From: a phage
Sequence record: NC_100371.1
Direction: 5' to 3' (one strand)
Length of the DNA stretch: 64,000 nucleotides
Position numbers and translations under genes: made by a program. How positions within the stretch are numbered: position 1 is the stretch's first letter; the number at the start of each line of letters is the position of its first letter. Positions 12,473 to 34,785 of the stretch are shown here, one piece after another. The notes below the pieces were generated by a model. The model saw only the letters and a list, made by a program, of their open reading frames with translations, ran no database searches and had not been told where the DNA came from.

Positions 12473-12814
12473 CTACTCAAGGTCTTCAGAGTCAAGCTCA
12501 AAAAGAATCAAACTGTGCATGCCTGCAGAGAGATCAACACACCCTGCAACAATAAGGGTTTGATAGTAAGGTTCAGCACCCTCAATATCTTCGTTAAAAT
12601 CCACAACAAGGTAGTCACCTTTGTTAAAGGTGTATTTGTCCGATGTAAACGCAAAACCTGCCCAGTCCCCTACTGCAGGATCTTTATCAGTCACCTTTGT
12701 TAGCAGTAGATCTTTTTCACGAGATCTTTTAGTAAAATCGTGAATCACAACATCCTTCTCTTCAGGAGTCGGATTGCCACACACGTAGTTAACGATATTT
12801 CTCCACAAACTCAT
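12473..12814 (-). CDS. hypothetical protein (113 aa)
   Basis: Co-oriented ORF; ATGA overlap with the upstream gene. Confidence 0.45.
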   Translation of the reverse strand: MSLWRNIVNYVCGNPTPEEKDVVIHDFTKRSREKDLLLTKVTDKDPAVGDWAGFAFTSDKYTFNKGDYLVVDFNEDIEGAEPYYQTLIVAGCVDLSAGMHSLILFELDSEDLE

Positions 12815-13458
12815 ACGTCCCCCTTTTCTGCTCTAGTTTCAAAATCTTTCCTGACTTTCTCGTCTAAACCAGGGAAAGTTGTATTATAAAACTCTACGAC
12901 TCTCGGGTCAACAATAATATCCACCTCTCTTAATGGACGCAACAAGTTTATTCCTTGTATCGTCTTAACCCGACTCAAGGCAACATACGTCATTCCGGGA
13001 GAGAAAGCTCCGTTCTTTCCGAGGTCTAGGTTGTAACAATCTAACGTAAGTCCTTGACTTTTATGCGATGTTACTGCGTACCCAGATTTCAAAGGAAGTT
13101 GCTCATAAGACCCGATCACAACCCTCTCTATGAACTTCTCCATCTTCCTTTCGGCAATATTGTACCTCTGGGAAGGTTTGTACTCGTTATTCTCCCACAA
13201 TCTCGGCTCAATTTCAACCTGTGTCCCGTCTTCCAGCTCAACCACCACAGACTTGGTCTTGAATTTTACCACTGTGGCTCGTGTCCCGTTGACATAGTAC
13301 GGAACTTTGTGTGTCGGGTCAACATCGTTTGAGGTTATCATAACCTTCATCCCTATCTTCAGCCTCATTTCCTGCTCCACAGGTAGTGTGGAAGGGAACT
13401 TACCTTTCATTTTACCAATGTAGGTCTTCTCTGGGGCCTTGATGGCATCATAGAAACG
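12811..13458 (-). pseudogene. Pif1/RecD/Dda-like SF1B helicase, C-terminal part (frame-shifted relative to the N-terminal part)
   Basis: Contains helicase motifs V/VI (VTSHKSQGLTLD, TYVALSRVKT). This frame is open upstream to 13458 and overlaps the end of the N-terminal ORF in a different frame. Confidence 0.7.
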
Positions 13459-14179
13459 TCATCACCTCCTCTGCTTGCTTATTGGTGGCACAGATGGTCA
13501 AGGCATCTGTTGGGACACCACCATGATAGCAACGAGTGTTAAGCTCTGCTACAACCTCTTTTATGCGACGACCTTCACGAACACAGTTCAACATTGTGGC
13601 GAAGCGAACAGATTCCTGACGGAACTGGTCTACTAATGCTATGTTGTGAAGATTAAGATCCTCCCAAGATTCTGTATAGCAACACAGATCTGTGTGGTAG
13701 AAGTTGAAGTAGGCTTCTTTCTCCATAGAAGAGACAACTGGAGGTGCTTGGTAGAAATCTCCAAACAATAACACCTGAATGCCTCCGAAAGGTTTGTCAT
13801 TTTTCCGAAGAAAGCGGAGTTTTCTATCCATCTCTATGAACTTGTCAGCACGGATCATAGAGATTTCATCGATAATCAGGATGGTAAATGCCTTGCTTTT
13901 CAGAGGCTTTGCTGTTTTTGCCCTTATTGCTGTCCAGTCTGACTCCATGCTCACACCTGCGGCAAGATCGAAAGTTCGGTGCGCTGTTGCTCCATTAACG
14001 TTTAAAGCGGCTACCCCTGTCGGGGCAACCGTTATGCAAGAGTCTCCATACATGGACTGGATCATGTTGATAAGATATGTCTTCCCGGTTCCACCAGGTC
14101 CACTTACGAAGACATTCTCACCGCTCATGATTGCAACAAGGGCAGCATCTGTGCCTACATCGTACTGCCCTTTTTCCAT
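13448..14179 (-). pseudogene. Pif1/RecD/Dda-like SF1B helicase, N-terminal part
   Basis: Walker A GPGGTGKT, motif II LIIDEISM, motif III LLFGDFYQAPPV; ends ...ATNKQAEEVMTFL and continues in another frame as the C-terminal part. Confidence 0.7.
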
Positions 14180-17894: not shown

Positions 17895-17910
17895 CCCCGC
17901 CGAAGCGGGG
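17895..17910 (-). terminator. intrinsic terminator (UUCG-loop hairpin)
   Basis: Minus-strand RNA CCCCGC-UUCG-GCGGGG followed by AUUUUCUAUUU; same 16-mer as at 44316-44331. Confidence 0.55.
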
Positions 17911-18313: not shown

Positions 18314-19498
18314 TCAAGCTTTAGCTAAAATGGCGCTAAACTCTTCACCAAACTCTTTTACAATCTTCATCAGGTTTGGGTATGCTTTGATCAGCTGAGC
18401 AACGATCTTGTCCCTGCCTTTACCAATAAGTAAGGCATTTCCTAAGGCGTTAGGTTTCATCATCGCCATAAAGACTGAGAATACAAAGTCTCGGTTCTCA
18501 TCCTTGAAATTTTCCCAAAGGAAATCAAGGAAGTTTGCCACACAGCTGACGAGATCTTCGTCGGAGATACTTGCATTTTCCATCATATTACGAATAGCGA
18601 TACAACCTTCAGACCCCAGAATCCACAAGATGTCTGGCTGCTTAGGACCTACATATTCTTTGCAGCCTCCTGCCATAATCCGACCGATTTCTGGCAAGTT
18701 TCGTTTCTTGGTGTGGTAGGTCCAAATTTCTACCGCTGCAGTGTGACCAATTGCACCTTGTAGAAGGACACGGGCCATAGCGTCAGAAATAATACCGCTG
18801 TCAAAATCGTGCAGGATGTCAGATGCAGCAACCCAAGATCGCGGTGTAGCAAAAGATGGACAATTAATCTCAGCCATGGCCTCATAATTATCGATGGCTG
18901 ATGGGACTCTTTTCAGATATCCAATTACCGAGGAGTGCACCCCATTAAGGAATGCATAGTCCTCAATAAACACCTCTGCACTGCTTGTAACTTCTACAAT
19001 GATAAAGCGGTTAGCTAGAGGAGCTTCGAGCGCCGAAAGAACAGCACCGTCTGTAGCACGGTTACCTGCAGCTACAAAAACAGAGCCCTTAGGAAATGCA
19101 TAGGTGCCGCACTTGTGGTCGAGCATAATTTGCATTGCAACCTTCTGCAGGTAGTTATCTGCATGAGTAAGCTCATCTAGAAAGATAATTCCGCTCCAGT
19201 CCGGATCTGCAGGCCAAAATTCTGGAATTGCAAACACTGTGCGTGTAGTCCCATCCGACTCTACAGGGATAGGTAGCCCAGATAAGTCAGCAGGATCTTT
19301 ATCTGACAACCGCACGTCAACCAGGTTGTCATCTCGCTCACCGAACATATTATCAGCAATCTGCTTCATCACCTGGCTCTTCCCCACGCCCATCGGTCCT
19401 AAAATCAGGACAGATCGGTTATGACGCTGGGCAAATTGAATAATAGCTGGCAACTCGCGGACAGTGATTTGACCACTTTCGAATACGTTTCTTGACAT
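18314..19498 (-). CDS. MoxR-family AAA+ ATPase (AAA_5; CobS/RavA-like)
   Basis: 394 aa. Walker A ILGPMGVGKS, Walker B IIFLDELTHA, sensor/arginine region AAGNRATDG ... ANRF typical of MoxR/CobS AAA+ proteins. Confidence 0.8.
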   Translation of the reverse strand: MSRNVFESGQITVRELPAIIQFAQRHNRSVLILGPMGVGKSQVMKQIADNMFGERDDNLVDVRLSDKDPADLSGLPIPVESDGTTRTVFAIPEFWPADPDWSGIIFLDELTHADNYLQKVAMQIMLDHKCGTYAFPKGSVFVAAGNRATDGAVLSALEAPLANRFIIVEVTSSAEVFIEDYAFLNGVHSSVIGYLKRVPSAIDNYEAMAEINCPSFATPRSWVAASDILHDFDSGIISDAMARVLLQGAIGHTAAVEIWTYHTKKRNLPEIGRIMAGGCKEYVGPKQPDILWILGSEGCIAIRNMMENASISDEDLVSCVANFLDFLWENFKDENRDFVFSVFMAMMKPNALGNALLIGKGRDKIVAQLIKAYPNLMKIVKEFGEEFSAILAKA

Positions 19499-20452: not shown

Positions 20453-20808
20453 TATTCTGCCTCCTCTTCTTTTTCTTCAGCATTAGTTTCAGTACCACCC
20501 CACTCTGGAGTTTCCACCTCGACAGTAAACTCACGCACTACACGGTAATTGCCCATGAAGCGCTCCACTTCTTCAAGGCTTATGGAGAGGCCATTGGCAA
20601 CCAAGTCTGCAGCACCCTTCTCTACCAGGTAGTCCAGATTGGCTTCCAAGGCTTCAGGCTCAAACCCTGTCAATGCAATCATATAACCTTCCCCTTCATC
20701 AGGGAGGGCAATACAGCCCAACTGATTTTCTTTAAAAAAGCAGTGACCATCACTATTGATTGGTTGCTCATTGCAGTAAATAGCTGCACGATAAGTAACT
20801 TTAGACAT
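20452..20808 (-). CDS. hypothetical protein (118 aa), acidic C-terminus
   Basis: Co-oriented ORF; C-terminal AEEKEEEAE tail. Confidence 0.45.
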   Translation of the reverse strand: MSKVTYRAAIYCNEQPINSDGHCFFKENQLGCIALPDEGEGYMIALTGFEPEALEANLDYLVEKGAADLVANGLSISLEEVERFMGNYRVVREFTVEVETPEWGGTETNAEEKEEEAE

Positions 20809-20820
20809 TGATAGGCCTCC

Positions 20821-21099
20821 TTAGGCAACTGTCATTTTACATTCTTGAAATTTTAGCACAAGACGGTGATTGTGTCTAGTGTCTAAAAAGATTTTTTCAA
20901 CCATCAGGCACACGGTATAACCGTCTGTCTTGTTGACAACAAAATCCCCAGGGTGAGGGAGAATGTCCCCAGGATTGGGGAAACATAACCCGCTCAAGAA
21001 GGCATCATCGGTGGTGGACTTAATGGATTTCCACACACTATCTGCCTGAACATTCTCACCAACATAATATACACTACCACATGACTTCATCATAGTCAA
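20821..21099 (-). CDS. hypothetical protein (92 aa)
   Basis: Co-oriented ORF. Confidence 0.4.
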   Translation of the reverse strand: MTMMKSCGSVYYVGENVQADSVWKSIKSTTDDAFLSGLCFPNPGDILPHPGDFVVNKTDGYTVCLMVEKIFLDTRHNHRLVLKFQECKMTVA

Positions 21100-21995
21100 A
21101 TCTCCGCGTAAATTAAACTGGAATCAGTATACTTCTTTAGTGGGTAAATATCCTGTCCATAGATGCCGTCATTAAACACCTCATCTACCCAAAGGCTACA
21201 CTTATATCCCATCATCTCTAAAACACCCATCTCTTCTTCGGTAAACTTATCACCGCTCTTGCAAGATGTCAACACCTCATTCTGTACTCTTGCTACCTCG
21301 AAGCGATTATTGGCAATATCGCTATTGGCGATCAAATACTCACCTAAAGGGTGTGCGGCATTAAAGATGCACAGTGGGCGGTTGACGTAATAGTCTCCAG
21401 GTGTATAAAAATTATTGAGGTCTTTCACTAGGACATTCTTATCAGTCACTTCATTTATAACATCATGCATATCGCACATCTTTATATGTTTGAGGATTCC
21501 ATCCCCCATCACAAAATAAAAACTTGCTGAGACACTCTCGGCATAGATCTTACTAGATCCGTTGTAGTTGTATTTTACTCGGATGCTAACGGGGGTTTTT
21601 CCTGTCGCGTTAGCCATCATCCAAAGAAATGGCAGCTCATACTTCTCCTCTGAGGAAACAAAAGGTGAAGTTGCCAGAGATCGGAAACCTCCAGAGAAGT
21701 TGAAAGTTACAGAACCGCTCCGGCGGTATGATACTGCGTATTCCACTTTTATATCAACATATCCGTTGGAGTAAGTATGCCCTCCATTATCAAGGTATGT
21801 CCACTTATCTGACCCAGATACCAACCTCCGCTCAATTACCTTCATCACTACAGGGATTAGCGGATTAGTACAAACCGATTTTGAAGTAGCTTTATCATCC
21901 AAAGCCTCGTAAATTGCAGAAAGGATATCACCTGCTGAGAGATTGGTTGTGATATCTTGTTTCCACCTGGTGCTAAAACTGTTAAGATTTGCCAT
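21096..21995 (-). CDS. hypothetical protein (299 aa), first gene of the leftward operon
   Basis: ATG at 21995 with AGGAG RBS; immediately downstream of the minus-strand promoter. Confidence 0.5.
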   Translation of the reverse strand: MANLNSFSTRWKQDITTNLSAGDILSAIYEALDDKATSKSVCTNPLIPVVMKVIERRLVSGSDKWTYLDNGGHTYSNGYVDIKVEYAVSYRRSGSVTFNFSGGFRSLATSPFVSSEEKYELPFLWMMANATGKTPVSIRVKYNYNGSSKIYAESVSASFYFVMGDGILKHIKMCDMHDVINEVTDKNVLVKDLNNFYTPGDYYVNRPLCIFNAAHPLGEYLIANSDIANNRFEVARVQNEVLTSCKSGDKFTEEEMGVLEMMGYKCSLWVDEVFNDGIYGQDIYPLKKYTDSSLIYAEI

Positions 21996-22035
21996 GAGTA
22001 AGTGCTCCTATGTTAGTTTTCTTTTGAATGGGTGC

Positions 22036-22064
22036 ACTATATCGTGGATTTAGAGTAAAGTCAA
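22036..22064 (-). promoter_or_regulatory. sigma70-type promoter, leftward (-35 TTGACT, 17-nt spacer, -10 TATAGT)
   Basis: Read on minus strand: TTGACT-N17-TATAGT in the divergent intergenic region upstream of gene 21096..21995. Confidence 0.6.
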
Positions 22065-22077
22065 TACGTTTTTCAGG

Positions 22078-22106
22078 TTGACATCTTCTCAGGCACTTGG
22101 TAAGAT
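22078..22106 (+). promoter_or_regulatory. sigma70-type promoter, rightward (-35 TTGACA, 17-nt spacer, -10 TAAGAT)
   Basis: TTGACA at 22078-22083, 17-nt spacer, TAAGAT at 22101-22106; upstream of the first plus-strand gene. Confidence 0.6.
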
Positions 22107-22138
22107 TTCTCCACCCACAGAGAACAAGAGACAACTCA

Positions 22139-23127
22139 TGAATCTTGAAAAATATTATACACCAGAAGAGTTAGAGCGCTTGCTCAAAAAATACAGACGC
22201 AAACAGAATAACGCACGGAAACGGGATATAGAGTTCAACCTGTCATGGGAAGAATATCTCCTATTTGGTAAAAAACTTTTAGGAGAGGGAGTATGCGACT
22301 ATACCCTTATACCTTTCGACATGCACACAGATGAAAACGGACTGGGAAATCCTTTCTACCCATCTCTAGAGCGGATAGATGATGAAGGTCCTTATGCGGT
22401 TGATAACTGTTGTGTGGTAGGATTGAGATGCAACTCTCTAAAGGACTGTCTGGTAGATAAAAAGACCGCAGTCTTGATTAAAGACAAAACTGATCGAAAA
22501 ATTGTCCAGCAGATGATGCTCCACCTGAGCGAAGAGCGTATGGAGAAATTGAAAGGTGATTACACTTTTGAAGATTTCATCTTGCAATATGGAACGGAAG
22601 AGGATAAACTAGCACTCTTTGACGAAGAATGGGAGGAAGATATGTCACCAATGCAGGATTTTAAAAACTTCATGGCTAATCGTGGAGCCAACAAGCACAT
22701 TTCTGACATTGTAAACGAGCCTGCAGTAGAGGAGATTGAAGAGATGACGCAACAGGCTTACGAAGAGGAAAAAGAGCCTCAAGGGGTCGAAGAAGAGCTT
22801 ACAGAAGAGGTTCCTGCACTGCCTGACGATGTTGAGATTGCCAAAGCTTACACTTTCTATTGCCAGACGTTCTACGATGCAGGTATGAAAGTTGATCTGT
22901 CATTCAGCCAGTTTAAGAGCACATACATTCGAAAATGTTGTGCTTTAACTGGTGAACGTCTCGGTGCCGGACTTAAACCCCTATTAGTTACCGACTGGAA
23001 CAAAGGTTTCACCAAAGGTAACTTCATGGTAGTATCTCCAATCATGGAGAAGGCTATGACAGACCTTATGAAGACCACTCGCATGACAATGACCGAGTTG
23101 GCTGGTATTTTCAAGCACGTTAAATAA
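22139..23127 (+). CDS. hypothetical protein with internal duplication and acidic linker
   Basis: ORF track 22078..23127 starts at a TTG inside the promoter; ATG at 22139 preferred. Two related segments (…SLERIDDEGPYAVDNCCVV… / …LTGERLGAGLKPLLVTDWNKGF…NFMVV…) separated by a Glu-rich region. Confidence 0.5.
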
Positions 23128-23160
23128 TGACAGGGGCCAATGGCCCCTTCTGGAGTTTTA

Positions 23161-24621
23161 ATGGATAGCAGAAGTTCAGAAATCATTACCGCACAAAAAG
23201 ATGATGCCTTGCGAATGCTGCAGGCCGCTCGCATGTACCTTCTTGAAAAGCTGCCGTTTTATGGCACACTGTTGTCAGGGTTACAGTTCGTAGAAAACCA
23301 CACATGGTGCTCCACTATGGCAACAGACCATAAACGCATCTACTACAGTCCTGAGTTCATTATGGGGTTGGCAGATGAGCGTAAAACCATTCTTAAAGCA
23401 TCTCTGACTGACAAGCAGTTTGAGATGGCTGAAGTTTTCTATTCCCCAAAATCTGTGAAAGAGGTGGCCTTTCTTCTGTCACATGAGGTGGGGCATATTA
23501 TCTGTGATCATCTGGTCCGTGGTAAAAGCTTTGAGCCGGAACTGTTCAATATTGCTTGTGATCACGTTATCAACACAGGTCTTGTGGTTGACTTTAGCAA
23601 GCCTCCTTGTGTTTTCTTCCCGAAGGGGAAAAGCACTGAGTTCGTAAAAGGTAAGCCTTTTGGCTTCTTAGCCAGTTGCTACTGCGACATGGAGTTTCAT
23701 GGATGGATTGCTGAGAACGTCTATGCAGTTCTTGATAAACAAAGAGATCAGAATAGCGGTAAAAGTAAGAACGGTAAAGGTGAGAACTCCCAAGGAGATA
23801 AACGACAAACCGATGATCACATGAGTGGGAACGGTGGCACCAGTGATGATCTTGGAAAGGCTATGGGGTATGATCAGCCGCAACCAGTAATCAGTCAATC
23901 TGATAAAGATCAGGCCATGCAGGACTCTGGTGACATGTTGGAAGCAGCAATGCAAGCTTCAGGAGGTCGTTGCCCCGAGGCGGTGCGCGAGTTTGTCAAA
24001 AACAGAGGCAAGCCTGTAATCAATTATATAGATATTATTAAGCAACGTATGTTATCTAAAAGAAAGGCTGAGTTAACCTACAGAAAACCTGGTCGCCGAT
24101 CTGGGTCTTTGACCACCACAATGCGAAAAGTTGGAGCTATAAACAAGAATCAACACGTTATTGTTCCTGGTCGTAATCCGGAAAACACTATAGATATTGT
24201 AGTGGCTTTAGACGTTTCTGGATCGATCTCACAAAGAACTTTAAAGAAAATGTTCAATGAGATCACCGGGTTGTGCAATTTGTATAAAGAGTTTAAGGTT
24301 ACGATGTTCTGTTGGTCAACCGAGGTTGGAGAGGTTAAAGTATACACTCGCGGTAACATCGATGAGATGATCAACTATGAGGTCCACTCAACATGGGGCA
24401 CAACAGCCGCCTGCGTGTTCGAGTATCTGGATGCTAACATACCGAATGCAAAAGATGTCATCGTCCTTACCGATCTCTACTTTGAGCATAACTTTGAACA
24501 AAAGGCTGTTGACAACAAGTGGAAAAAGTACGATACTTTATGGGTTCTCACTGAAGGGTATAATAAAAATTATATCCCGAGCTTTGGGAAAACTGTGGAA
24601 TTAATCGAGTACGTTAAATAA
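23161..24621 (+). CDS. HExxH metallopeptidase-like / von Willebrand factor A (vWA) domain protein
   Basis: N-terminal HExxH (LLSHEVGHIICDH); C-terminal vWA with MIDAS DxSGS (VVALDVSGSIS) and VIVLTDLYF. Preferred start ATG 23161 (GGAG RBS) after hairpin 23132-23148; ORF-track start 23140. Confidence 0.7.
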   Translation: MDSRSSEIITAQKDDALRMLQAARMYLLEKLPFYGTLLSGLQFVENHTWCSTMATDHKRIYYSPEFIMGLADERKTILKASLTDKQFEMAEVFYSPKSVKEVAFLLSHEVGHIICDHLVRGKSFEPELFNIACDHVINTGLVVDFSKPPCVFFPKGKSTEFVKGKPFGFLASCYCDMEFHGWIAENVYAVLDKQRDQNSGKSKNGKGENSQGDKRQTDDHMSGNGGTSDDLGKAMGYDQPQPVISQSDKDQAMQDSGDMLEAAMQASGGRCPEAVREFVKNRGKPVINYIDIIKQRMLSKRKAELTYRKPGRRSGSLTTTMRKVGAINKNQHVIVPGRNPENTIDIVVALDVSGSISQRTLKKMFNEITGLCNLYKEFKVTMFCWSTEVGEVKVYTRGNIDEMINYEVHSTWGTTAACVFEYLDANIPNAKDVIVLTDLYFEHNFEQKAVDNKWKKYDTLWVLTEGYNKNYIPSFGKTVELIEYVK

Positions 24622-24636
24622 AGGAGGAGATTATTT

Positions 24637-24900
24637 ATGGCAACAGAGTTAAAATTTGCATCCAACCGTAAAACTAAGAAGTATCTGTCTTCAGTAGCTC
24701 CAGGTACTGTGGTGATGTTTGTTGATGAACTTGGAGATGTGAATACAGCACTTGTTGTGAGATCACATCCTGCAAACATATATGTTGGGGTATTTGACCT
24801 GTTCAGAAAGGTGTTTGCAGAACTACCTCACACCTTGGTTGTTACAGAAATGGATGCCTGCATAGAAATTCTTGGCGAAGTTATGGTGGAGGAACAATAA
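24637..24900 (+). CDS. hypothetical small protein, tandem paralog 1 of 4 (87 aa)
   Basis: AAGGAGGAG RBS; MAT...GTVV...D..G pattern shared with the next three genes. Confidence 0.55.
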   Translation: MATELKFASNRKTKKYLSSVAPGTVVMFVDELGDVNTALVVRSHPANIYVGVFDLFRKVFAELPHTLVVTEMDACIEILGEVMVEEQ

Positions 24901-25163
24901 TGGCTACTAGCATTGTATTCAATTCTAAAGTGAAGAACAAAAAGCGTGCAGACAGTTTTCCATGTGGGACCGTGGTAAGTTGTGACGGAGACGGCATTCA
25001 AAACATAGTTATGATTGTCAAAACAGGGGAACATTGTGTATGGGGGTTCGATTTAGAAAATAATGAGTTGTACGATCTGCCACCAAACATGAAAGTTACA
25101 GAGCTTGACACCAAAATTACCATCCTTGGAGAGACAAGCTATTCAAAAGAAGGAGGAGAATAA
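24900..25163 (+). CDS. hypothetical small protein, tandem paralog 2 of 4 (87 aa)
   Basis: TAATG stop/start overlap; same length and pattern (MATSIVF...CGTVVSCDGDG). Confidence 0.55.
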   Translation: MATSIVFNSKVKNKKRADSFPCGTVVSCDGDGIQNIVMIVKTGEHCVWGFDLENNELYDLPPNMKVTELDTKITILGETSYSKEGGE

Positions 25164-25426
25164 TGACCACGAAAATCACCATTGCAGAACCAAAAGCTAA
25201 CACGCAACCTATCGAAAAGTTTAAATGCGGTGAGGTGGTAACATTTACACCAGATAATGAAGATGCTAAGATTTTTGCCATGGTAACAGCCGAGTGGATG
25301 TGTGACAATACCACACAGGTGCTGCGTTTTGACACCTATCTTACAGATGAAATCAGGAACGACAAGATCGTGACTGGTGTGGATACTGAGATTATTTTCT
25401 ACAAGAGCTTTTTAGAGGGTTTCTGA
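25163..25426 (+). CDS. hypothetical small protein, tandem paralog 3 of 4 (87 aa)
   Basis: TAATG overlap; KFKCGEVVTF pattern. Confidence 0.55.
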   Translation: MTTKITIAEPKANTQPIEKFKCGEVVTFTPDNEDAKIFAMVTAEWMCDNTTQVLRFDTYLTDEIRNDKIVTGVDTEIIFYKSFLEGF

Positions 25427-29099: not shown

Positions 29100-29112
29100 C
29101 TATAAAAAGAAA

Positions 29113-29137
29113 GGGGCCATTTGGCCCCCCTTTTTTA
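29113..29137. terminator. bidirectional intrinsic terminator between convergent operons
   Basis: GGGGCC-ATTT-GGCCCC hairpin flanked by an A-run upstream and a T-run (TTTTTT) downstream. Confidence 0.7.
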
Positions 29138-29148
29138 TCTACTACTTG

Positions 29149-32100
29149 TTAAAGAGAGAAAGTCGCGTAGGCTCCCAGACGATACTGCTGGTCACCAGGG
29201 AACATAACACCTATAGAGGCTGTCCCTAGAATCCTGCCTTCCTTTCCAGACTCCATTCTGAACCCTACCCATCCTGAACTCCTTGCAGCCTCGATGTTGT
29301 CGCTATACCCGAAAGTGGCAAGATCGTCAACACCAGCCCCAAACAGCAACTGAAGCTGACTTCTCGGAAGCCCTATAATTTCAGGAATATATGCACCAAA
29401 GTACACCATCTGCCCTACCTTAGGACCGCTGCCGTACTCCATCGGCTTGCTTGTAGCAAAAGTCTTCATACCAGAAGTCCCTGCCGGATTAGGGTATGCC
29501 CCGTTTGTTGCTGTACCTATCCACATTCTCCACTGTGGTGTCATCTGTTTGACAGTAAAAGATGTTGAAGACGTTTTGCGACCTGCATCATCAGTAGCTA
29601 CAAACTTTATAGTGACATTACCAGGAGCTTTAAATGTTACCAGCCCTGTGGTAGCATACACTGTTGCAATGTTGGTATTACTGCTTTCCCAAGTCTTTCT
29701 AATCCCAGACACATTGGAAGGGGTAATAGAAGGTTCCTGCATCTGCAGTTTACCACCCACAATCCCTATGCCGTTACCTGGGTTATACAACGCACCAACT
29801 TCATCTATAATGTTACCTGCCTTGAGACTGTACTTCCTTGAGAAGTTGTAAGTTCCGTTATAAGCGTGTGTCCCTGAGAAGGTGACATCTGCTTTTCCGT
29901 AAGAGATGCAAACCAAAGCATACTTCCTGTCAGGCAACGTTTCTCCAGTCTCTGGGTGAGTTTTACCTACCTGGAACACACTCGGGTCAGTGGAGTCGTG
30001 GCTATCACTAACGGAGCTTGGACCACCCATCAGTTGTGACAAGCAATTCCTTACCCATGTCCAGTTATTGTCACTGGAGAAGTCTACGGTCAAATCAAAC
30101 ACAACCCACTCATTTGGCTTCCACACAGGTGTTGTGATCAACTTACCAACACCCCCACCCTGAAGAGTAGGAGATTGTTCAGTGATCAGGGCAGAGTATG
30201 CCAGAGTGCCCAACTGCATAGTCTGGCTTGCTGTCCTCACTACCTTAGAATCAGCATCTGTGAAGTTGTTGATGATCTGGAATGTGCCATAAGTGTTTTT
30301 ACAGGTAATTCTGGCGTTCAGTGTGTCAATCTTCCTCACATCTGCCATAGCAGTGTTAGACACAGAGAAGTCAGAAGCTTTAGCTGAGTTTGCCGCAACA
30401 GCAGGATCAACGTTAAGAGTTGCGTTGAACTGACAAGCAGGGGTAACCAGCAGCTTGTTATCACCTATTTGCTTCCATGAAACACTTTGAACAGGGAGAT
30501 TCCATTTAATACCTGAGAAAACTTTAGCAACCCTTGGTCCCAGGGCTCCAGTCCTGTTGTCTTTACAGCACATGGACATGGTGATCGTTGACGGAGTTGC
30601 CTGACCAAACAATTGCTGTGCTTTTGCAGAGGACATAGTGTAGAAATTGTCCTTAACAAACTCATCAGCCGCTAACGATCCGTCAGATCTCCACCATTGT
30701 ACCTGGTATCCTGTCTTATCCCAGCCACCAACCTGCTTCAAGTCCTCCCAAGAGATTTCCAGATCCCCAGTGGTAGGGTTGATTGCCGCAGTTCCTGGTG
30801 TTCCAGATGACCATATTGGGATATCGAACCACGCTGGTTTAACAGACTGCACTGCGTTAGGTCCTATTGCAGCAGCAAGTTGTTGACCCATCAATACGCG
30901 AGCATCTTTCACCAGGCCCCACTCAATCATAGATCCAGAGTAACCCTCTTTCTTATATGCAGAGGACCCGTTCAAATGGATGAGCCTGCTGCAGTCGAAG
31001 CCATACGCTCCACCACCATTAGGGTCTGCGAAGTTAGTTATGATTCTATCCCTAATATTTTTCCATGCCCTACCCCCAATCTCGTAGTCATGGTCATAAC
31101 ATCTTTGCAGCGTTGTCCAGCAAATGATTGCCATTCTTCTGCCACCTGTAAACCCGAAAGCGCCGTCATTCAACTCTTTCCACAGGTAGCAGTTAGTTGT
31201 CCACATAGCTCTGTGAATGTTGAACCAGTTTATGGACTTGGCTGAGTTATCCCACTGAGTCCCAGGTAATTCAGGCCACACTGCATTAACCAGCATGTCT
31301 TCTGTTCCTGCATCAACCAAGAACCCTCTTACCTTTTTACCCATGCCTACCCTGTCTTTTGCAATCCAACTGCCAAACAATCTCAGTTTTGGACCGTAAA
31401 CAACATCTTCCGGATGCTCAAAAGAGACATACTTTAAGTAGATTGTTGGGTCACCGTAGGTGCCATCACAAACACTTTTGTGCATGTTTTCGCCAAGATC
31501 TAGACGAAGCCCTGTCACCACTTTAGACGTGTCAGTGAATTTGTCTGTTAAATCAAATTCATACCACCACCATCCACCACCAAGCATAAATTTCTTGCAT
31601 CGAGTATTGTCTGTATCAGATATTCTCTTATCCCCTGCAAAAGGTGAATCAGCAAACTGATAATGCAGAGCAGTCTCGAATAGATGTGTTGAGGTTCCGT
31701 TTTCTGCAAGAACTTGCTTACCTATTAAGTCGCACTTAATGATCATCACAACACGTTTGTACCCGTTTGTTACTGGAACTTGCATAGATATGGATGTTCC
31801 GTCCATGTTCGATCTTAGTGCTGTCATGATGATATATGGGTCAACAGCGTTGCCTAAAGTTTCAGGCCCTGGGATTATCTTGTACTTCTTAACCTGCCCC
31901 ATGAACCTGTCACTGGCGTAAGTTGCAGCCTCAAAGCAAGATCCTCCATTAGGCAGTTCGCCAGGACCCCAGAAAAATGCGCCATAACAGTTATAAAACC
32001 ACTTGTTAGGGTCGTATTTGTTCTTGAAGGTCTGAACCTCGTTAGCCTGTTTTGTCAAGAAAACCTGCGTATCTGTAAAGATTGCAGGATTTACTCTCGC

Positions 32101-32883
32101 CTGACGTTGAGGGTACCCTGTCGATTGGTTAAACCACTGATTACAAGAGTAATCTCTCATATAGTCATAATCAGAGTATTTGTTTGCATCTTCGTTCCAA
32201 CACATATTTAGGTTGGTACCGCCCATGCACACAATGTATTCTGCGATATACTTATCGCTTCTGGTAGGAATACCTATGAACCATCTATTAACAGGCTCAT
32301 CCCAAGCTGTGCGCTCATCTTTAACGCAGATAGCAATCCAGTCATGTGTTCCTGTTTTCTTGCATACATCTCGCTTCATACCGTAGTAGAACTCTTTAGT
32401 ATTCGGCTCAGGTGCATTTATCAGGTAACTCCATGCCTGATTTGCATAAGTTCCATTGGTTCGCGGGTCATGATCAAAGGCATACATGATGATCCTTTCC
32501 CCACCAAGATGTTCGCCAAGAGTAACTTTGACATTCACATCGCCGTAACCATTGCGAACAACATCCATATTATCAATAGAGATGCCCCTAGGGGTGTAGG
32601 CAATTTTCAGAGAGCTATCTTCACTGGTGCCTCCAAGTGTAATCCCTATGTTGTTTGTTGTCCCGTCGGCATATCTTACTGTGGCTTCCCAGCGTATTCC
32701 GAAATATCCTGCATCATGGCTGACAATTTTCAGTGTACGAGCACCTGGGTGAGGTTTTCCAGGATCAGGCCAAGGGTCTGGGTGTTCGTGGACAGTCAAC
32801 GACGTTCCGTTTTGCTCGTTAACCTGCAACATTTTACCGCCTCTGCCGTTAGGGTTGAACTCCCATACGGCCTGTGTCTGCAC
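29149..32883 (-). CDS. large virion-associated protein with C-terminal Big_2-like Ig domain (putative distal fibre/adhesin)
   Basis: 1244 aa; last gene of the tail operon. Ig-like Big_2-type segment (ITPSNVSGIRKTWESSNTNIATVYATTGLVTFKAPGNVTIKFVATDDAGRKTSSTSFTV). Confidence 0.55.
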   Translation of the reverse strand: MQTQAVWEFNPNGRGGKMLQVNEQNGTSLTVHEHPDPWPDPGKPHPGARTLKIVSHDAGYFGIRWEATVRYADGTTNNIGITLGGTSEDSSLKIAYTPRGISIDNMDVVRNGYGDVNVKVTLGEHLGGERIIMYAFDHDPRTNGTYANQAWSYLINAPEPNTKEFYYGMKRDVCKKTGTHDWIAICVKDERTAWDEPVNRWFIGIPTRSDKYIAEYIVCMGGTNLNMCWNEDANKYSDYDYMRDYSCNQWFNQSTGYPQRQARVNPAIFTDTQVFLTKQANEVQTFKNKYDPNKWFYNCYGAFFWGPGELPNGGSCFEAATYASDRFMGQVKKYKIIPGPETLGNAVDPYIIMTALRSNMDGTSISMQVPVTNGYKRVVMIIKCDLIGKQVLAENGTSTHLFETALHYQFADSPFAGDKRISDTDNTRCKKFMLGGGWWWYEFDLTDKFTDTSKVVTGLRLDLGENMHKSVCDGTYGDPTIYLKYVSFEHPEDVVYGPKLRLFGSWIAKDRVGMGKKVRGFLVDAGTEDMLVNAVWPELPGTQWDNSAKSINWFNIHRAMWTTNCYLWKELNDGAFGFTGGRRMAIICWTTLQRCYDHDYEIGGRAWKNIRDRIITNFADPNGGGAYGFDCSRLIHLNGSSAYKKEGYSGSMIEWGLVKDARVLMGQQLAAAIGPNAVQSVKPAWFDIPIWSSGTPGTAAINPTTGDLEISWEDLKQVGGWDKTGYQVQWWRSDGSLAADEFVKDNFYTMSSAKAQQLFGQATPSTITMSMCCKDNRTGALGPRVAKVFSGIKWNLPVQSVSWKQIGDNKLLVTPACQFNATLNVDPAVAANSAKASDFSVSNTAMADVRKIDTLNARITCKNTYGTFQIINNFTDADSKVVRTASQTMQLGTLAYSALITEQSPTLQGGGVGKLITTPVWKPNEWVVFDLTVDFSSDNNWTWVRNCLSQLMGGPSSVSDSHDSTDPSVFQVGKTHPETGETLPDRKYALVCISYGKADVTFSGTHAYNGTYNFSRKYSLKAGNIIDEVGALYNPGNGIGIVGGKLQMQEPSITPSNVSGIRKTWESSNTNIATVYATTGLVTFKAPGNVTIKFVATDDAGRKTSSTSFTVKQMTPQWRMWIGTATNGAYPNPAGTSGMKTFATSKPMEYGSGPKVGQMVYFGAYIPEIIGLPRSQLQLLFGAGVDDLATFGYSDNIEAARSSGWVGFRMESGKEGRILGTASIGVMFPGDQQYRLGAYATFSL

Positions 32884-32934: not shown

Positions 32935-34785
32935 CTAGGTGACTGATCCAGCATCCATTCTGTGGAGTCGGACCATATACGATGTATCTCCTTCTACCGC
33001 AGGCTGAGTCCCATTCAGCCCGAAGTATACAGTATCGTTAACATGGAACTGCTTGTTTCTACCAACGGTATGCCACTTACCGTCAGAAGGATACGCAGGA
33101 ACTATGGTGTTCCAGTTCAAAGTCCTTGTCGTGTGAGTTCTTCCTGTGCCATGTTTGTCATGATAGGTTATTTTTACAGAGTACAGGCCACGTCTGTTAA
33201 CATTCCTGTTATACTGAGTAACAACAACTTCGTTGGCCCCGCCGTGGTTCCAGTTGGTGGAGAATTGGTAATTTGCATCTGTAACAACCGTACCCGCAGC
33301 ATTTACCAGTTCAATCTTGTCAATAATGAACGTAGCCCCCTCTGGCTGAGGCTTCAATTTCATCTTGACCGTGTCACCAATGTAAATATTGCTAACACTG
33401 CTAACACCGTTAACGTCAAAAATATCATCAACACCCCAACTGTCTACTGGGACATTTTTATACCAATTCTCAGGAACCTCTGTGAACCCCTGACTATTAA
33501 GTCTTCCGCCAAACAGGTTGTTAGAGCCTGCAAAACTTCCCCTTGGGATGCCTGACCACCAAAGTTTACCATTAACAACAGTAAAGGTACCTAAAAAACC
33601 TTCTCTGTGAATGCCCTGGAAATAAACACTCTCTGTCCAGCTAACTGGGAGGCGTTGCTCAACGTATTTGGCTGTGGCAAGAGCTTGATAGTGGATAAAA
33701 TTGGCCCTAGGGTTATTGTTTGCAGATTGTGCGCCAATATCATTACATAAGTTGCGAGAGAATCCGCGATACTGCTTAGTGCCATTATTGAAGAAAATGC
33801 CACTTGTTCCGTACCCACGAGCCATTATTACTTCATGGGTGTAGGTAATATTTAAGGAACGCCATGTATCATCTCCCCAGACATCTTGCCCGTAGAATAC
33901 GTTAACAAGCTGCTGATCATTAGGCTTGTGCATCCTCTGCGTTGCAATTATCGCCCCGTTCGGACCACACATGAATCCTTTCCACTCCTCATCTGCAGGA
34001 ATGCCTTTCAAATCGTTGCGAGTAATCTGAGCAGGGGGCCAAACAAGGTCGTTTCTACTGTTGTTTCTCAGAAAGTCGTATCCAGCAATCCAAAAACCTC
34101 TGGGCCCACCGAAAATAACAGAGTTGTCATGCACCTCGCAGTTGATACTTGGGTTTTTCCAAGGGCCTGTTTCAGGATTTTCCGATGTTTCACCAATCTT
34201 TACAGGGGTTGCATGCTGGTTCTTATCTACATGTAAAGATCCGTAGGTGTTGTTACCAGACCCGTACAGGTGTAAAATGCCGTCACCCTCAGCCTCTGCC
34301 ATAACCCAAACAGTGTTGTTAATACCGCCCATTACCTCGATAAGGCGCTCTGGGTGGGTGTCAAGGTGCAATCCTTGAACAATCTGTTCCGGAAGAGGTG
34401 TCCACTCGTTTACGCAAACATCGTTACCACCTGCCGCAGTGGATCCGATAAGACCTGCAGTGCAGCCGATGTAGAAAAACTGGTTATCAAAAGTCCGGAT
34501 CACAAACGCACGGTCTGCTCTCCACACATGATCAACATTCCAGGCCGTCTCGCTCGGGTAGTTTATAGGGTTACGATCCCCAGTGCGACACTCCCCGAAC
34601 TTGTTATAGCCAGTAATATTAAGCTGACCATCGTCAAAAAGTATAGCTAAGCTATTTACATAAGCTACTGTAGTGCTTGTACCGTCACTGTTGTCTATTG
34701 GGTATGACAGAACAGCAAGTTCCTTAACTCCACCCCTCTTATCGAGGAAATGACGACCAAGTTTTAGCAAAGGGATTGGAAGCAT
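32935..34785 (-). CDS. putative tail fibre / receptor-binding protein
   Basis: 616 aa, Gly/Asn-rich beta-type sequence; located in fibre cluster. Confidence 0.45.
   Translation of the reverse strand: MLPIPLLKLGRHFLDKRGGVKELAVLSYPIDNSDGTSTTVAYVNSLAILFDDGQLNITGYNKFGECRTGDRNPINYPSETAWNVDHVWRADRAFVIRTFDNQFFYIGCTAGLIGSTAAGGNDVCVNEWTPLPEQIVQGLHLDTHPERLIEVMGGINNTVWVMAEAEGDGILHLYGSGNNTYGSLHVDKNQHATPVKIGETSENPETGPWKNPSINCEVHDNSVIFGGPRGFWIAGYDFLRNNSRNDLVWPPAQITRNDLKGIPADEEWKGFMCGPNGAIIATQRMHKPNDQQLVNVFYGQDVWGDDTWRSLNITYTHEVIMARGYGTSGIFFNNGTKQYRGFSRNLCNDIGAQSANNNPRANFIHYQALATAKYVEQRLPVSWTESVYFQGIHREGFLGTFTVVNGKLWWSGIPRGSFAGSNNLFGGRLNSQGFTEVPENWYKNVPVDSWGVDDIFDVNGVSSVSNIYIGDTVKMKLKPQPEGATFIIDKIELVNAAGTVVTDANYQFSTNWNHGGANEVVVTQYNRNVNRRGLYSVKITYHDKHGTGRTHTTRTLNWNTIVPAYPSDGKWHTVGRNKQFHVNDTVYFGLNGTQPAVEGDTSYMVRLHRMDAGSVT

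Follow-up and report, generated by a model that had tools for sequence, protein, structure and literature searches.

Two back-to-back promoters of the host sigma-70 type very probably head the two divergent arms of non-structural genes in this phage, with start sites predicted from the hexamers, a presumed dependence on host RNA polymerase and a putatively early timing. An earlier note on this DNA had proposed a divergent early control region dependent on host RNA polymerase; conservation and promoter-class scores bear out the pair of sigma-70-type promoters, and its early timing is suggested by gene content and promoter type.

Genome setting of the divergent region

The window, by which we mean the whole stretch of 64,000 nucleotides that was analyzed, comes from a Vequintavirus (an rV5-like coliphage). 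Positions 20500-24000 are 99.5% identical to Escherichia phage S127 BCL3, and at least 80% of that stretch is covered by 117 further phage records. Sixteen GenBank records named “Campylobacter phage ...” (MG0656xx, flagged UNVERIFIED) are 90-95% identical to the present coliphage region and are classified as Vequintavirus; they probably represent misattributed hosts or contaminating coliphages.

On the gene map, which is the mapped annotation of S127 BCL3, the non-structural part of the window contains a single divergent intergenic region, and this is the site of the promoter pair. All annotated genes to its left lie on the minus strand, the nearest being the 299-aa gene that starts at ATG 21995, and the genes to its right lie on the plus strand from ATG 22138 to ~29.1 kb, where a bidirectional terminator marks the border with the tail genes of the minus strand. 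Both start codons are also the ones annotated in S127 BCL3, the closest relative. The earlier note had located the intergenic region correctly but had given its length as 143 bp; it is 142 bp (21996-22137), because 22138 is the A of the ATG.

Sequence and geometry of the promoter pair

Direct reading and a consensus scan agree to the base with what had been reported, namely TTGACT-N17-TATAGT on the minus strand (22064→22036) and TTGACA-N17-TAAGAT on the plus strand (22078→22106), and the separation of 13 bp between the -35 elements was likewise confirmed (22065-22077). Each promoter scores 10/12 against the sigma-70 consensus in the scan. The 13 bp between the hexamers read TACGTTTTTCAGG, with a run of five T residues dead center. 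Absent from the earlier account was the extended -10 TG of the plus site at 22098-22099, which accompanies a -10 hexamer (TAAGAT, 22101-22106) that by itself matches the consensus at 4/6 positions. T-12, A-11 and T-7 are present in both -10 hexamers, and both sites combine the features by which a sigma-70 promoter is recognized: a -35, a -10, a 17-bp spacer and a suitable orientation and distance to the gene. Many of the promoters listed for rV5 have a run of A residues 4-6 nt ahead of the -35. The coordinates of all of these features are collected in Table 1.

Table 1. Positions in the window of the promoter elements, flanking genes and terminators.
Feature	Position	Strand	Remarks
Divergent intergenic region, 142 bp, between gp10-like (minus) and gp11-like (plus) genes	21996..22137	.	
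gp10-like gene, 299 aa	21096..21995	-	Annotated “putative alpha 1-3 fucosyltransferase”; rV5 ORF10
gp11-like gene, 329 aa	22138..23127	+	Srd-like N-terminal region; rV5 ORF11 “Srd-like anti-sigma factor”
-35 TTGACT (5/6), leftward promoter, homologue of rV5 P010	22059..22064	-	Invariant in 13/13 Vequintavirus sequences; matches rV5 Table S4 P010
-10 TATAGT (5/6), leftward promoter	22036..22041	-	1/6 columns variable, in one sequence
Leftward spacer, 17 nt	22042-22058	-	14/17 columns variable (82%) in 13 Vequintavirus sequences
Predicted leftward transcription start (A, preceded by C), 7 nt past the -10	22029	-	Predicted from sequence
Shine-Dalgarno AGGAG of gp10-like gene, 9 nt ahead of ATG 21995	22005..22009	-	Conserved in alignments A1 and A2 (A2, 13 Vequintavirus sequences)
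A5/T5 run, exact midpoint between the -35 boxes, -44 to -40 of both promoters	22069..22073	.	Invariant in the 13-sequence Vequintavirus alignment
-35 TTGACA (6/6), rightward promoter, homologue of rV5 P011	22078..22083	+	23/23 Vequintavirinae loci tabulated; 13/13 Vequintavirus sequences
Extended -10 TGgTAAGAT, rightward promoter	22098..22106	+	TG invariant; one -10 column variable (TAAGAT/TACGAT) in 13 Vequintavirus sequences
Rightward spacer, 17 nt	22084-22100	+	10/15 columns variable (67%), TG excluded, in 13 Vequintavirus sequences
Predicted rightward transcription start (A, preceded by C)	22113	+	Predicted from sequence
Intrinsic terminator CCCCGCTTCGGCGGGG then ATTTTCTATTT, homologue of rV5 t003	17895..17910	-	
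Bidirectional terminator closing the rightward arm, homologue of rV5 t026/t027	29110..29131	.	

Because a C-A step occurs 7 nt past each -10, A22029 and A22113 are the predicted transcription starts, with 84 bp between them. The resulting 5' UTRs would measure 34 nt on the leftward side (22029-21996) and 25 nt on the rightward side (22113-22137), the latter with AAGAGA ahead of the start codon. Each -35 box occupies positions -49 to -54 of the opposite promoter. Since the -35 boxes and the A5/T5 run thus lie in each other's upstream zone, two polymerases could, as a matter of geometry, share or compete for upstream contacts, and the A5/T5 run is possibly a shared UP-like element.

The rightward extended -10, TGGTAAGATTT (22098-22108), also matches at 8/10 positions TggTAaAAtA, the late-promoter motif proposed in the rV5 paper. 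This likeness is probably incidental, because most relatives have TGATAAGAT instead. The gp10-like gene contains a near-copy, TGTTAAGATTT, within its 5' end (21980-21990).

Chance expectation and promoter class

A single 10/12 match to the consensus is unremarkable, since about 15 are expected by chance per 64 kb; the window contains 42 sites of at least 10/12, many of them intragenic, versus 14.8 ± 3.7 in first-order Markov random sequences. This background, and the change in the sign of the GC skew at the promoter region, are what would favor reading the pair as consensus matches that arose by chance in an AT-rich spacer without promoter function, or as a cis element of another kind, for example a replication origin. 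We regard that as highly improbable. In 20,000 shuffles of the 142-bp region, any site of at least 10/12 appeared in 5%, but a divergent back-to-back pair appeared in 0.015% (1.5e-4), and the selective conservation of hexamers, TG and spacer length described below is not expected of chance matches. The GC skew changes sign at the promoter region because the coding strand flips there; it merely tracks the coding strand and flips again at 29 kb, and a replication origin was accordingly rejected. The intergenic stretch contains no iterons or repeats, and an Rfam scan of positions 21600-22500 at E <= 1 matched no family.

We also scored the window with a position-weight model trained on 25 other published rV5 promoters, P010 and P011 having been left out. 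The plus site scored 16.6 bits and the minus site 15.9 bits, placing them 11th and 12th in the window; a random 64-kb sequence holds 0.2 sites at 16 bits or more. Because a model trained on rV5 ranks both sites this high, we assign the pair to a phage-wide class of sigma-70-type promoters.

Conservation within Vequintavirus and a sister lineage

For a genus-level alignment we used 13 Vequintavirus sequences chosen to span 83-100% identity over the region. Only 2 of the 26 promoter positions (the four hexamers plus the TG) were variable, versus 53 of the 116 other intergenic columns (Fisher p = 1.4e-4, in a test that treats columns as independent and was made on 13 related sequences). The spacers are the most variable segments of all (Table 1), yet they are 17 bp long in 13/13 sequences. 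A fixed spacer length, a free spacer sequence and invariant hexamers together are the signature expected of sigma-70 promoters, and the alignment indicates purifying selection on the hexamers and on the distance between them, with the spacer sequence itself free to drift. In four IMG/VR contigs in which gp11 is ~65% identical, the spacers are unrecognizable, but both -35 elements survive, as do the T-run between them and the TG-TA of the plus -10.

A further block of ~20 bp at 22016-22035 (GTTTTCTTT[C/T]GAATGGGTGCAC) is nearly invariant in the 13 Vequintavirus genomes and is more conserved than the remaining spacer. It spans the leftward discriminator (22030-22035 are invariant within the genus), the +1 position and the first transcribed bases, to about +20. 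Its conservation exceeds what promoter function alone explains. The block is lost in the 65%-identity IMG/VR lineage.

The start of the gp11-like gene

The earlier note had suspected that an open reading frame called from 22078 was wrong because it begins inside the -35 element, and the comparison with relatives fully supports this suspicion: the TTG at 22078 is the first triplet of the -35 box, the stretch that follows evolves as noncoding DNA, and the true start is ATG 22138. Across the 20 codons from 22078 to 22137, 30-50% of the residues differ from those of three relatives, and the changes fall mainly at the first and second codon positions, whereas across the first 100 codons from ATG 22138, only 1-4% of residues differ from the same number of relatives and nearly all changes are at position 3. 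In other genera, gp11 homologues align from the same methionine. A false start of the TTG 22078 type is present in the public record of vB_EcoM_366V_SA_NWU; in the record of rV5 itself, the ORF11 CDS is called from a TTG that lies 42 nt past the ATG chosen in most other records.

Search for a regulator site

In phage lambda, the back-to-back sigma-70 promoters PR and PRM start ~82 bp apart, in a region that has three dyad operators and is flanked on both sides by repressor genes. When starts lie back-to-back about 80 bp apart, each -35 falls in the upstream (alpha-CTD) zone of the other promoter, and the spacing predicted here is close to that of lambda. The present region might by this likeness be a regulated switch, with one or more operators at which a DNA-binding regulator of the phage or the host would act on one promoter or on both, in the manner of lambdoid PR/PRM. 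Other features would fit a switch: the only notable inverted repeat of the region, AAGTCAA-N13-TTGACAT, is made up of the two -35 boxes; the block at 22016-22035 is nearly invariant within the genus; and the first rightward gene carries an anti-sigma label.

We nevertheless consider such a switch improbable. The suggestion in the earlier note that the region is a likely site for a regulator found no support, in that a custom scan of the intergenic region for dyad operator symmetry returned nothing above chance, its best dyad (7/8, with a 14-bp gap) being matched or beaten in 60% of shuffles, and an inverted-repeat search at seed 6 found none inside the intergenic stretch. The 22016-22035 block is unique in the window, besides being lost in the sister lineage; its GAATGGGTGCAC portion, the conserved leftward +1 block, was tried as a regulator motif and rejected, as it is no commoner window-wide than chance. 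Folding of the predicted 5' UTRs gave z values of 0.02 and -1.9 and no convincing structure.

The flanking proteins also argue against a switch. A Pfam search with gp10 and gp11 matched no family, a PDB sequence search with gp11 gave zero matches, and the PHROG families matched by the two proteins are of unknown function or are labeled Srd or HNH, so that neither protein has a DNA-binding family match in Pfam or PHROG. The N-terminal part of gp11, to which the similarity is confined, matches Srd-type families (phrog_1400, 3e-10; phrog_4592, 3e-12). T4 Srd is a host-takeover protein whose characterized function is to stimulate RNase E against host mRNA, not to bind operators. Unlike lambda, then, this virulent phage has no operator-like dyad in the region and no flanking gene for a CI/Cro-type helix-turn-helix repressor. 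A pair of sigma-70-type promoters remains our preferred reading.

Gene arms, terminators and internal promoters

After injection, unmodified host sigma-70 holoenzyme would bind both promoters and transcribe outward from A22029 and A22113. The rightward promoter would drive the Srd-like host-takeover gene gp11, then a DUF2201 metallopeptidase/VWA protein (Pfam) and small ORFs, up to the terminator at ~29.1 kb. Transcription from the leftward promoter would cover the gp10-like gene, small ORFs and the gene for a MoxR-type ATPase and run as far as the terminator at ~17.9 kb, which is the probable end of a first leftward unit of ~4.1 kb.

The earlier note had described the promoters as separating two early operons. 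The divergent promoter pair stands, but the two-operon layout is too simple, because both arms contain internal co-oriented promoter-like sites, and the leftward arm is interrupted by the terminator just mentioned. Beyond the pair, there are 19 further co-oriented sigma-70-like sites of at least 10/12 in the leftward arm and 6 in the rightward arm. Co-orientation with the genes holds for 27/29 arm sites when the pair is included and for 25/27 when it is excluded, compared with 9/17 sites in the late structural arm. Because both members of the pair belong to this phage-wide co-oriented promoter set, the pair would start the two arms but would not be their sole control point.

Several other features of the arms were recorded. 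A perfect GC-rich hairpin, AGGGGCCAATGGCCCCT (23132-23148), lies between the gp11 stop and the gp12 start and has a terminator-like score on the minus strand only; on the plus strand, the ribosome-binding site of the next gene lies in TCTGGAGTTTT, the sequence after the hairpin. The hairpin may be an attenuator or an mRNA stability element after the first rightward gene. The MoxR-type AAA+ ATPase gene (18314-19498, minus) and the DUF2201/VWA gene (23161-24621, plus) lie in opposite arms, ~2.5-3.7 kb and 1 kb, respectively, from the promoter region; proteins of these two types are usually partners. In several public records, the DUF2201/VWA gene is labeled “anti-sigma factor” or “HNH endonuclease,” labels that its Pfam domains do not support.

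Three head-to-tail ORFs of 87 aa (24637-24900, 24900-25163 and 25163-25426) are diverged paralogues, the second and third being 37% and 20% identical to the first, and S127 BCL3 is ~270 bp shorter in the part of the arm around 24637-25426. Two further genes are broken relative to that phage. The RecD-like helicase gene (12811-14179), a single 1,371-nt CDS in S127 BCL3, is split here into ORFs 12811-13410 and 13448-14179 by a 2-nt deletion (about 13461), which is a frameshift or a sequencing error. In the gene for a giant tail protein with Ig-like domains, a single substitution creates an amber TAG at 32935-32937 where S127 BCL3 has TAT, yielding ORFs 29149-32883 and 32935-34785 instead of one 5.6-kb CDS.

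Comparison across Vequintavirinae

We tabulated 23 loci, comprising the window, one sister-lineage contig, Seunavirus, Mydovirus, Henunavirus, TH18-like phages, an Acinetobacter phage and more IMG/VR contigs. In 23/23 of them, the gp11 homologue is preceded by a perfect TTGACA, a spacer of 16-18 bp and a -10, and under the rV5-trained model, this plus site outscores every other site of the locus in Seunavirus, Mydovirus and TH18. The scores of the leftward partner, in contrast, drop from ~15 bits (Vequintavirus, the sister lineage and TH18) to ~6 bits for Seunavirus and Mydovirus, and in Henunavirus-like loci they are ~0-1 bits. Subfamily-wide conservation of the divergent pair was therefore rejected on model scores: since several genera have a weak minus site or none, the pair is well supported in only part of the subfamily.

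This asymmetry raises the question of whether the rightward promoter alone is ancestral or important, the leftward match being lineage specific or weak and the leftward arm being transcribed mainly from internal promoters, of which the arm has many co-oriented candidates. For the present phage we think this quite unlikely. Within Vequintavirus, the hexamers of the leftward site vary no more than those of the rightward site; the leftward site scores nearly as high as its partner in the window, and its homologues in the sister lineage and TH18 score about as well; and no other credible leftward promoter is found between the minus site and ATG 21995.

The gap between the -35 boxes is 13-14 bp in Vequintavirus and the IMG/VR sister lineage (22065-22077 in the window) versus 3-4 bp in TH18-like phages, Seunavirus, Mydovirus and Henunavirus. 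The longer gap adds roughly one turn of the helix, and the central T5/A5 run lies within the additional 10 bp. Among credible pairs, the gap is either 3 bp (TH18-like) or 13-14 bp (Vequintavirus and the sister lineage), with no intermediates. One could imagine from this a coupled twin module, in which both polymerases would use the A5/T5 run as a common upstream element, the helical phase of the -35 boxes would be constrained and the two arms would be co-activated or mutually exclusive, possibly with feedback from the Srd-like protein. Its basis is essentially one 10-bp indel between lineages, and we hold it to be an unlikely, if conceivable, arrangement.

Relation to known systems

The pair is not new. 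Promoters P010 (TTGACT...TATAGT) and P011 (TTGACA...TGATACGAT) of phage rV5 were predicted at the homologous positions by Kropinski et al. (2013, Virol J 10:76, Table S4), and the rV5 GenBank record (DQ832317) carries the feature “Sigma70-type promoter; P11.” The sites are orthologous: they have the same flanking genes (ORF10 and ORF11), the same -35 boxes, 17-bp spacers and TATAGT, in intergenic regions that are 89% identical. They differ in the rightward -10, which is TACGAT in rV5 and TAAGAT here, and in their spacer sequences, and in both phages the sites are predictions. The searched literature yielded no experimental transcription start site, RNA-seq or timing data for Vequintavirus or Vequintavirinae.

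In the same subfamily, a putative early promoter, AAAA(N3-4)TGTTGAC(N17-19)TATAAT, has been described in Certrevirus (Pectobacterium phage CB7 and Cronobacter phages CR3, CR8 and CR9), where it is concentrated in regions of short ORFs and replication genes (Antibiotics 2020, PMC7344957). It resembles the present sites in being sigma-70-like and in having an upstream A-run; the leftward site here reads GAAAAACGTA-TTGACT. However, Certrevirus is another genus with other hosts, and its class was described genome-wide, a divergent pair not being described (PMC7344957).

T4 offers a third parallel: like the present phage, it is a virulent myovirus, and its first transcripts are made by unmodified host sigma-70 holoenzyme, with an Srd-family gene among its first products, as is predicted here. 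The parallel has limits, since homologues of the T4 late transcription proteins gp33, gp45 and gp55 have not been reported for rV5 and the Srd similarity extends only to the N-terminal part of gp11.

Implications

Because the same pair had already been predicted for rV5, it is in itself ordinary; the analysis adds comparative support to the in silico prediction of 2013, and its importance beyond annotation is small. It also places the gp11-like start codon at ATG 22138 and so corrects a false TTG start in at least one public record. If these phages, which are therapeutic candidates, were to be engineered, the pair is predicted to be a compact, probably strong, host-dependent bidirectional early promoter cassette. 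More broadly, the promoter ahead of the Srd-like gene is a subfamily-wide landmark that could anchor the annotation of early regions in Vequintavirinae.
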